Assembly (NCBI RefSeq): GCF_003334255.1
Contig: NZ_QOWU01000017.1
Strand: one strand, 5' to 3'
DNA length: 64,000 bases
From: Escherichia coli
GTDB taxonomy: Bacteria; Pseudomonadota; Gammaproteobacteria; Enterobacterales; Enterobacteriaceae
This document shows positions 5,664-5,836 of this stretch, piece after piece (the stretch's first letter is position 1; every line of letters starts with the position of its first letter). The notes below the pieces were generated by a model that saw nothing but the letters and a program-made list of their open reading frames with translations, did no database searches and had not been told where the DNA came from. Made by a program: the position numbers and the translations under genes.

Positions 5664-5681
5664 CTGTCATCAAACTGCCAT
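5664..5681 (+). promoter_or_regulatory. Pho box (PhoB binding site) upstream of yoaI
   Basis: CTGTCATcaaaCTGcCAT matches the Pho-box direct-repeat consensus; about 50 bp upstream of the yoaI ATG. Confidence 0.5.
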
Positions 5682-5731
5682 TTGTGCACGCTAACAATAA
5701 CGTGAAAACAGCTATCTCCCGGGGGCATGCT

Positions 5732-5836
5732 ATGAACGATCAAATGTTTGTCGAGACACTGATTATCACGTCATCGTTTTTTGCCATTGCTGTTGTACTG
5801 GTTTTGTCCGTTCTTCTTATCGAACGGACCGGCTAG
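5732..5836 (+). CDS. yoaI: small membrane protein YoaI (34 aa, [34 protein letters not shown])
   Basis: hand-translated; below ORF-track cutoff; matches recalled PhoB-regulated K-12 small protein. Confidence 0.7.

Follow-up and report, generated by a model that had tools for sequence, protein, structure and literature searches.

PhoB-dependent control of the small membrane protein gene yoaI from a near-consensus Pho box in Escherichia coli

The yoaI locus and its product

The window is the whole 64-kb stretch of Escherichia coli DNA analyzed here. Its segment at positions 5100-6400, with features of nimR, yeaL, yoaI, yeaK and dgcJ, matches 5,412 of the 5,426 complete E. coli genomes. The part at 5540-5860 is 100% identical to E. 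coli K-12 MG1655, so that published MG1655 results apply directly to this DNA. In MG1655, yoaI (b1788) occupies 1874078-1874182 on the minus strand, and coordinates were converted by subtracting the window position from 1879914. This mapping was rechecked at 17614-18614, where one SNP was found in 1,001 bases. The 60-nt promoter core (5655-5714) is present exactly in 3,766 of the 5,426 complete genomes and near-exactly in another 820. Two of the places matched by 5100-6400 or 5655-5714 in E. coli genomes lie on records labeled as plasmids. The features of the locus are as follows.

5116-5562, minus strand: yeaL, the divergent neighbor, encoding a DUF441 inner-membrane protein (from annotation).
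5664-5681, plus strand: Pho box, from its sequence, its top matrix score, its identity with a published ChIP-seq 18-mer and its retention at 29 of 33 yoaI loci.
5692-5698, plus strand: candidate -10 element TAACAA(T), 10 bp 3' of the box, a hexamer that recurs in most other genera.
5704-5731, plus strand: putative 5' leader of about 28 nt, its start deduced from the position of the -10 element.
5732-5836, plus strand: yoaI coding sequence, from the ATG at 5732 to the TAG ending at 5836, encoding a single-pass small membrane protein of 34 residues.
5837-6340, minus strand: yeaK, the convergent neighbor, encoding a deacylase of mischarged aminoacyl-tRNA (from annotation).

The region between yeaL and yoaI is 169 bp long (5563-5731) and contains the Pho box, and the span 5664-5836 begins with the first base of the box and ends with the yoaI stop codon. 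On the other side, yoaI and yeaK meet stop codon to stop codon (5834-5839) with no intergenic gap. A scan for intrinsic terminators 3' of yoaI on the plus strand detected none, and 5826-5945 folds no better than its shuffles (z = 0.24). In several E. coli strains, an IS1 element is inserted toward the 3' end of yeaK, in 675SK2 at a place equivalent to about 118 nt after the yoaI stop (window position ~5955). These strains have an intact yoaI promoter and ORF, and their yeaK product is re-annotated as a longer protein with a YbaK domain. The yoaI promoter was considered as the place of the insertion and rejected because the element sits in yeaK. A search of 4000-8000 against Rfam gave a JUMPstart match alone, at 5327-5356 on the plus strand inside yeaL, and this match is most likely due to chance (20.9 bits against a gathering threshold of 35, E = 0.34).

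The original prediction described yoaI as a 34-residue membrane peptide, and the translated ORF agrees with this description. Over residues 1-34 of 34 it matches the NCBIfam equivalog family NF041475 (membrane_YoaI) with a score of 79.8 bits (cut-off 45, E = 1.1e-22), and it is hydrophobic over residues 9-30, where the Kyte-Doolittle hydropathy averages 2.69. The same prediction took yoaI for a micro-protein that escapes the track of ORFs. The 34-codon gene is real, but it is not hidden, being covered by NF041475 and annotated in RefSeq as b1788, 'small membrane protein YoaI'. Among 21 orthologues of exactly 34 codons, pairwise divergence averages 0.31 at the first codon position, 0.14 at the second and 0.51 at the third; all 21 have V27, and both S26 and E31 are conserved in all but one. 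An S-V-x3-E motif is present in 29 of the 33 orthologues found. These comparisons indicate that the yoaI ORF is a genuine protein-coding gene under purifying selection. The conservation pattern of the 21 orthologues agrees with that reported by Vellappan et al. (PMC11429745), in which S26, V27 and E31 are invariant across 57 Gammaproteobacteria.

The same study has detected a YoaI-SPA protein and shown that YoaI localizes to the membrane. A two-hybrid assay has shown that YoaI binds to EnvZ through the conserved Glu31, and YoaI activates the kinase EnvZ and raises the output of EnvZ-OmpR. In low Mg2+, the level of YoaI protein rises while that of its mRNA is unchanged, indicating post-transcriptional control (PMC11429745). 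This response to low Mg2+ lies beyond what the Pho promoter explains.

The convergent arrangement with yeaK bears on a different reading, in which the main product of the promoter is a PhoB-induced RNA running antisense into yeaK and the small ORF is incidental. Such an RNA would fit the abutting stop codons and the lack of a detected plus-strand intrinsic terminator. In published RNA-seq data, yeaK is about 1.7-fold lower in the presence of PhoB (389 and 413 in the wild type versus 709 and 655 in the phoB deletion; log2 -0.8, q = 0.0115; Table S1 of Fitzgerald et al., PMC10294691). However, this change is small and misses the threshold of q < 0.01 set by those authors. The divergence across codon positions is of the protein type, S26, V27 and E31 are nearly invariant, and detection of YoaI-SPA, its membrane localization and its binding to EnvZ via E31 (PMC11429745) all speak for a functional protein, so that an RNA as the main product is very unlikely. 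An antisense effect could coexist with the YoaI protein, but as the sole function of the transcript it is excluded. That phosphate starvation also lowers the YeaK deacylase, either by transcriptional collision between yoaI and yeaK or by antisense RNA, is conceivable but doubtful. The reading that we prefer is that the promoter serves yoaI as a protein-coding gene.

Sequence of the Pho box and geometry of the promoter

The box consists of two 7-bp direct repeats on the plus strand at 5664-5681, CTGTCAT (5664-5670) and CTGCCAT (5675-5681), separated by CAAA (5671-5674). The repeat period is 11 bp and the 4-bp spacer is A/T-rich, which is the arrangement expected of a PhoB-activated promoter. 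When one mismatch at most is allowed, the pattern CTGTCATNNNNCTGYMAY has a single match on both strands of the 64-kb window, and this match is the Pho box. The mean for shuffled sequences is 0.15 matches, with at least one match in 14 of 100 of them. The uniqueness of the pattern is by itself only mildly unlikely.

As a stronger test, a log-odds matrix for PhoB was built from the 58 other 18-mer sites listed in Table 1 of Fitzgerald et al. (PMC10294691), with the yoaI site excluded. With this leave-one-out matrix, TGTCATCAAACTGCCATT at 5665-5682 scores 16.1 bits, the highest value among the 127,966 positions that the two strands of the window offer; it would rank 19 among the 59 published PhoB sites. 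The site deviates from the matrix optimum at C7, C14 and T18. The C14 of the second repeat, which gives TGCCAT in place of TGTCAT, is an unfavored base and costs 2.1 bits. The yoaI Pho box had been called a consensus one; it is the top-ranked PhoB site of the window, but with these three positions off the optimum it is near-consensus, not perfect. The matrix finds no second in-phase Pho box, the rest of 5563-5731 scoring at most 3.9 bits on either strand. The unfavored TGCCAT half-site (5675-5681) is kept across Escherichia, Salmonella and the Citrobacter amalonaticus and C. koseri groups, and in remoter genera the second half-site is mostly TGTCAT.

High matrix scores also occur elsewhere in the window. 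The second-best, 15.3 bits, belongs to TTTAATATAGCTGTAACC at 39458-39475 on the plus strand (MG1655 1840439-1840456), inside ynjE. This site is absent from the 65 published ChIP-seq regions (PMC10294691), and hence the matrix score alone is no predictor of binding.

A -10-like TAACAAT (5692-5698) follows the Pho box after 10 bp (5682-5691), which places the repeat where the original prediction had put it, upstream of yoaI at the position of a -35 element. A consensus scan upstream of yoaI found no sigma-70 -35/-10 pair on the plus strand. The lack of an ordinary pair is expected where an activator site replaces the -35 element, as in a Pho promoter. The Pho box stands in place of the -35 element about 10 bp 5' of the -10 hexamer, and this geometry fits a Pho promoter. 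The assignment of the hexamer to exactly 5692-5698 follows the Pho-promoter model and is to be read as a candidate. In most genera, a hexamer of the type TAnnAn (for example TATCAA, TACTGA, TATGAA or TAAAAA) lies 9 nt past the 18-mer, and the 9-10 bp spacer from box to hexamer is variable. The presence of such a hexamer at the same offset in most genera supports TAACAA(T) as the -10 element. Judging from its position, transcription of yoaI would start at about 5704-5706.

The leader predicted from this start ends in a Shine-Dalgarno sequence, GGGGG at 5721-5725, 6 nt 5' of the yoaI ATG. A purine-rich Shine-Dalgarno sequence (GGGG, GGAGG or GAGG) is kept in most yoaI orthologues. The segment 5704-5760 is less stable than its shuffles (z = +1.36), and such an unstructured leader offers no explanation for the effect of Mg2+ on YoaI. 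A two-codon upstream ORF, ATGCTATGA (ATG-CTA-TGA), overlaps the yoaI start at 5727-5735 in this strain and in K-12. It was rejected as a conserved feature because other Escherichia lineages, which carry CATACTATG, AAGACCATG and similar sequences, lack its ATG, and this mini-ORF is probably incidental.

Distribution of the Pho box among related species

Loci of 80 Enterobacteriaceae at the species level were gathered through the neighbor YeaL, and the DNA upstream of yeaL was read in the orientation of yoaI. In 32 species, the interval from yeaL to yeaK contains an ORF resembling yoaI, giving 33 sequences together with the window. It is present, among others, in Escherichia species, in the arizonae and diarizonae subspecies of Salmonella, in the C. 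amalonaticus and C. koseri groups, and in Trabulsiella, some Enterobacter, Kosakonia, Yokenella, Pluralibacter, Pseudenterobacter, Cedecea and Dryocola. The other 48 of the 80 species, including the C. freundii complex, Klebsiella, Raoultella, Kluyvera, Buttiauxella and Leclercia, have no yoaI in the interval between yeaL and yeaK. At some of the loci without yoaI, yeaK is also replaced by unrelated genes.

A Pho box of at least 12.7 bits (median 15.0) starts 61-78 nt 5' of the yoaI start in 29 of the 33 sequences. The remaining four, from two Kosakonia, Dryocola and Cedecea sulfonylureivorans, have weak sites of 7.9-11.6 bits. As estimated on the E. coli window, a score of at least 12.7 bits arises by chance with a frequency of about 0.005 per 150-nt single-strand stretch and about 0.0007 per stretch of 18 positions. 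Of the 48 loci without yoaI, searched on both strands within 250 nt upstream of yeaL, not one has such a box, the best score being 9.9 bits and the median 3.4. These counts, 29 of 33 with yoaI against 0 of 48 without it, indicate that the Pho box travels with yoaI and not with yeaL. The spacing between the box and yoaI is fixed even across genera whose flanking sequences no longer align. Within Escherichia, the Pho box and the block TAACAATAACGTGAAAACAG are both conserved, and the spacer between the two is variable. This comparison of loci argues that the Pho box is conserved together with yoaI in related species.

The survey also bears on whether the Pho box serves the divergent yeaL, or both genes, instead of yoaI. 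The box lies in an intergenic region shared by the two, about 100 bp from the yeaL start, and the published peak at this place is labeled 'yoaI/yeaL' (PMC10294691). However, the level of yeaL RNA is 36 in the wild type versus 67 in the phoB deletion, a difference that is not significant (q = 0.28; PMC10294691). Furthermore, the repeats point toward yoaI, with the -10 element on the yoaI side at the canonical distance of 10 bp, and no box stands upstream of yeaL in any of the 48 species that have yeaL without yoaI. An assignment of the box to yeaL is extremely unlikely, and yoaI is taken as its target.

PhoB-dependent expression of yoaI and its relation to known systems

The yoaI promoter is said to have been described in E. 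coli O157:H7 by Yoshida et al. in 2012 (Gene 502:27). Fitzgerald et al. (mBio, 2023; PMC10294691) credit the first description of yoaI regulation to earlier O157:H7 work, and their Table 1 lists a PhoB-FLAG ChIP-seq peak at MG1655 1874218, corresponding to about 5696 in the window. This peak carries the motif TGTCATCAAACTGCCATT and is assigned to yoaI/yeaL, and its center lies about 20 bp from the center of the Pho box. In low phosphate, the level of yoaI RNA is 12,266 in the wild type versus 28 in the phoB deletion (log2 8.8, q = 7e-210), a roughly 440-fold drop without PhoB. RNA polymerase occupancy within yoaI is higher in the wild type than in the phoB deletion, and sigma-70 occupancy at the yoaI site is more than 2-fold higher. 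Together with phoE and phoH, yoaI has been placed among the second-tier conserved genes of the Pho regulon (PMC10294691). The ChIP enrichment score of yoaI is 1, the lowest class (PMC10294691), yet its regulation is among the strongest. The conserved TGCCAT half-site may be linked to this low score despite the very strong regulation.

A second published PhoB ChIP-seq peak in the window lies at about 18116 (MG1655 1861798), inside yeaC. Its ChIP score of 5 is above that of the yoaI site, and no MEME motif was assigned to it (PMC10294691). Within 100 nt on either side of this peak, the best score of the PhoB matrix is 6.3 bits. The center of the peak falls in ATGACAATTGACACAAATGGTCAGATGGTCATG, with GGTCA repeats at a non-canonical spacing.

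The dependence of yoaI on PhoB has also been observed by other approaches. In low phosphate, a PyoaI-YFP reporter is induced in the wild type and also when phoQ is deleted, and deletion of phoB abolishes this induction (Vellappan et al., PMC11429745, Fig. 3A). This is in essence the experiment that had been proposed along with the original prediction, a promoter-reporter fusion in phoB-positive and phoB-deleted strains, and its published outcome is PhoB-dependent induction. In array data for O157:H7, Chekabab et al. (2014; PMC3978041) list Z2828 (YoaI) with values of 5.68 and 4.86, in the table that belongs to their section on phosphate starvation and phoB inactivation. The suggested control of yoaI by phosphate starvation is thus borne out by the published peak and RNA levels and by the link between box and gene across species.

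These data weigh on the view that the repeat is a chance match without a regulatory role. In its favor, the pattern CTGTCATNNNNCTGYMAY turns up in 14 of 100 shuffles, other high matrix scores in the window, such as the 15.3 bits at 39458-39475, fall outside the ChIP list, and most PhoB sites are transcriptionally inert (Fitzgerald et al., PMC10294691). However, the yoaI site is bound in vivo and yoaI RNA falls about 440-fold without PhoB (PMC10294691), the yoaI reporter is PhoB-dependent (PMC11429745), and the distance between box and yoaI is constant across genera with unalignable flanks. The probability of a chance match is negligible. The region 5664-5836 is almost certainly a PhoB-dependent promoter with its gene, yoaI, as a member of the Pho regulon.

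The steps of this regulation are as follows. When phosphate is scarce, PhoR phosphorylates PhoB, which binds as a head-to-tail dimer to the repeats at 5664-5681, spaced by 11 bp. With the box as a substitute for the -35 element, 10 bp 5' of the weak candidate -10 element TAACAA(T), PhoB recruits sigma-70 RNA polymerase, presumably through contact with region 4 of sigma by analogy with pstS-type promoters. The result is a yoaI mRNA with a putative short leader, from which the 34-residue YoaI is made. YoaI inserts into the inner membrane and stimulates EnvZ, and in this way it links PhoR-PhoB to EnvZ-OmpR signaling, as has been published. PhoB binding, PhoB dependence and the interaction with EnvZ are experimental findings of the published studies, and the present analysis shows the geometry, the matrix rank and the link to yoaI across species.

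Site, regulator, target gene and target function have all been published already, and nothing here is new to biology. What is added is an independent ranking of the site by a matrix, a survey of 80 species, and a proposed -10 element with its spacer geometry. A simple matrix and synteny analysis independently reaches the published conclusion. The locus serves as a calibration case, in which the raw sequence alone sufficed to recognize a genuine regulatory site and the micro-protein that it controls.

The published yoaI promoter and the one analyzed here share locus, 18-mer, regulator and target, with no difference between them. The Pho promoters of pstS, phoA, phoE, phoB, ugpB and phnC likewise have TGTCA-type direct repeats with an 11-bp period. 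In these classical promoters as in that of yoaI, the box takes the place of the -35 element some 10 bp before the -10 element, and induction by phosphate starvation depends on PhoB through recruitment of sigma-70. The yoaI promoter has a single box, whereas the phoB region is reported to have two PhoB sites (PMC10294691). Unlike the classical Pho promoters, it has TGCCAT as its second repeat, and its ChIP score is 1 compared with 38 for pstS (PMC10294691). The product also differs, being a 34-residue modulator of signaling in contrast to the phosphate-scavenging and transport products of the classical Pho genes.

In this respect YoaI resembles SafA, PmrD, MzrA and MgrB, small proteins that are induced by one two-component system and that bind to and modulate the sensor kinase of another. 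In the YoaI version of such a connector, PhoR-PhoB induces the protein and EnvZ-OmpR is acted on (PMC11429745). YoaI has no sequence relationship to SafA, PmrD, MzrA or MgrB. MzrA also targets EnvZ, but it is 127 residues long compared with the 34 of YoaI. YoaI further differs from these four proteins in having an extra, post-transcriptional layer of control by Mg2+.
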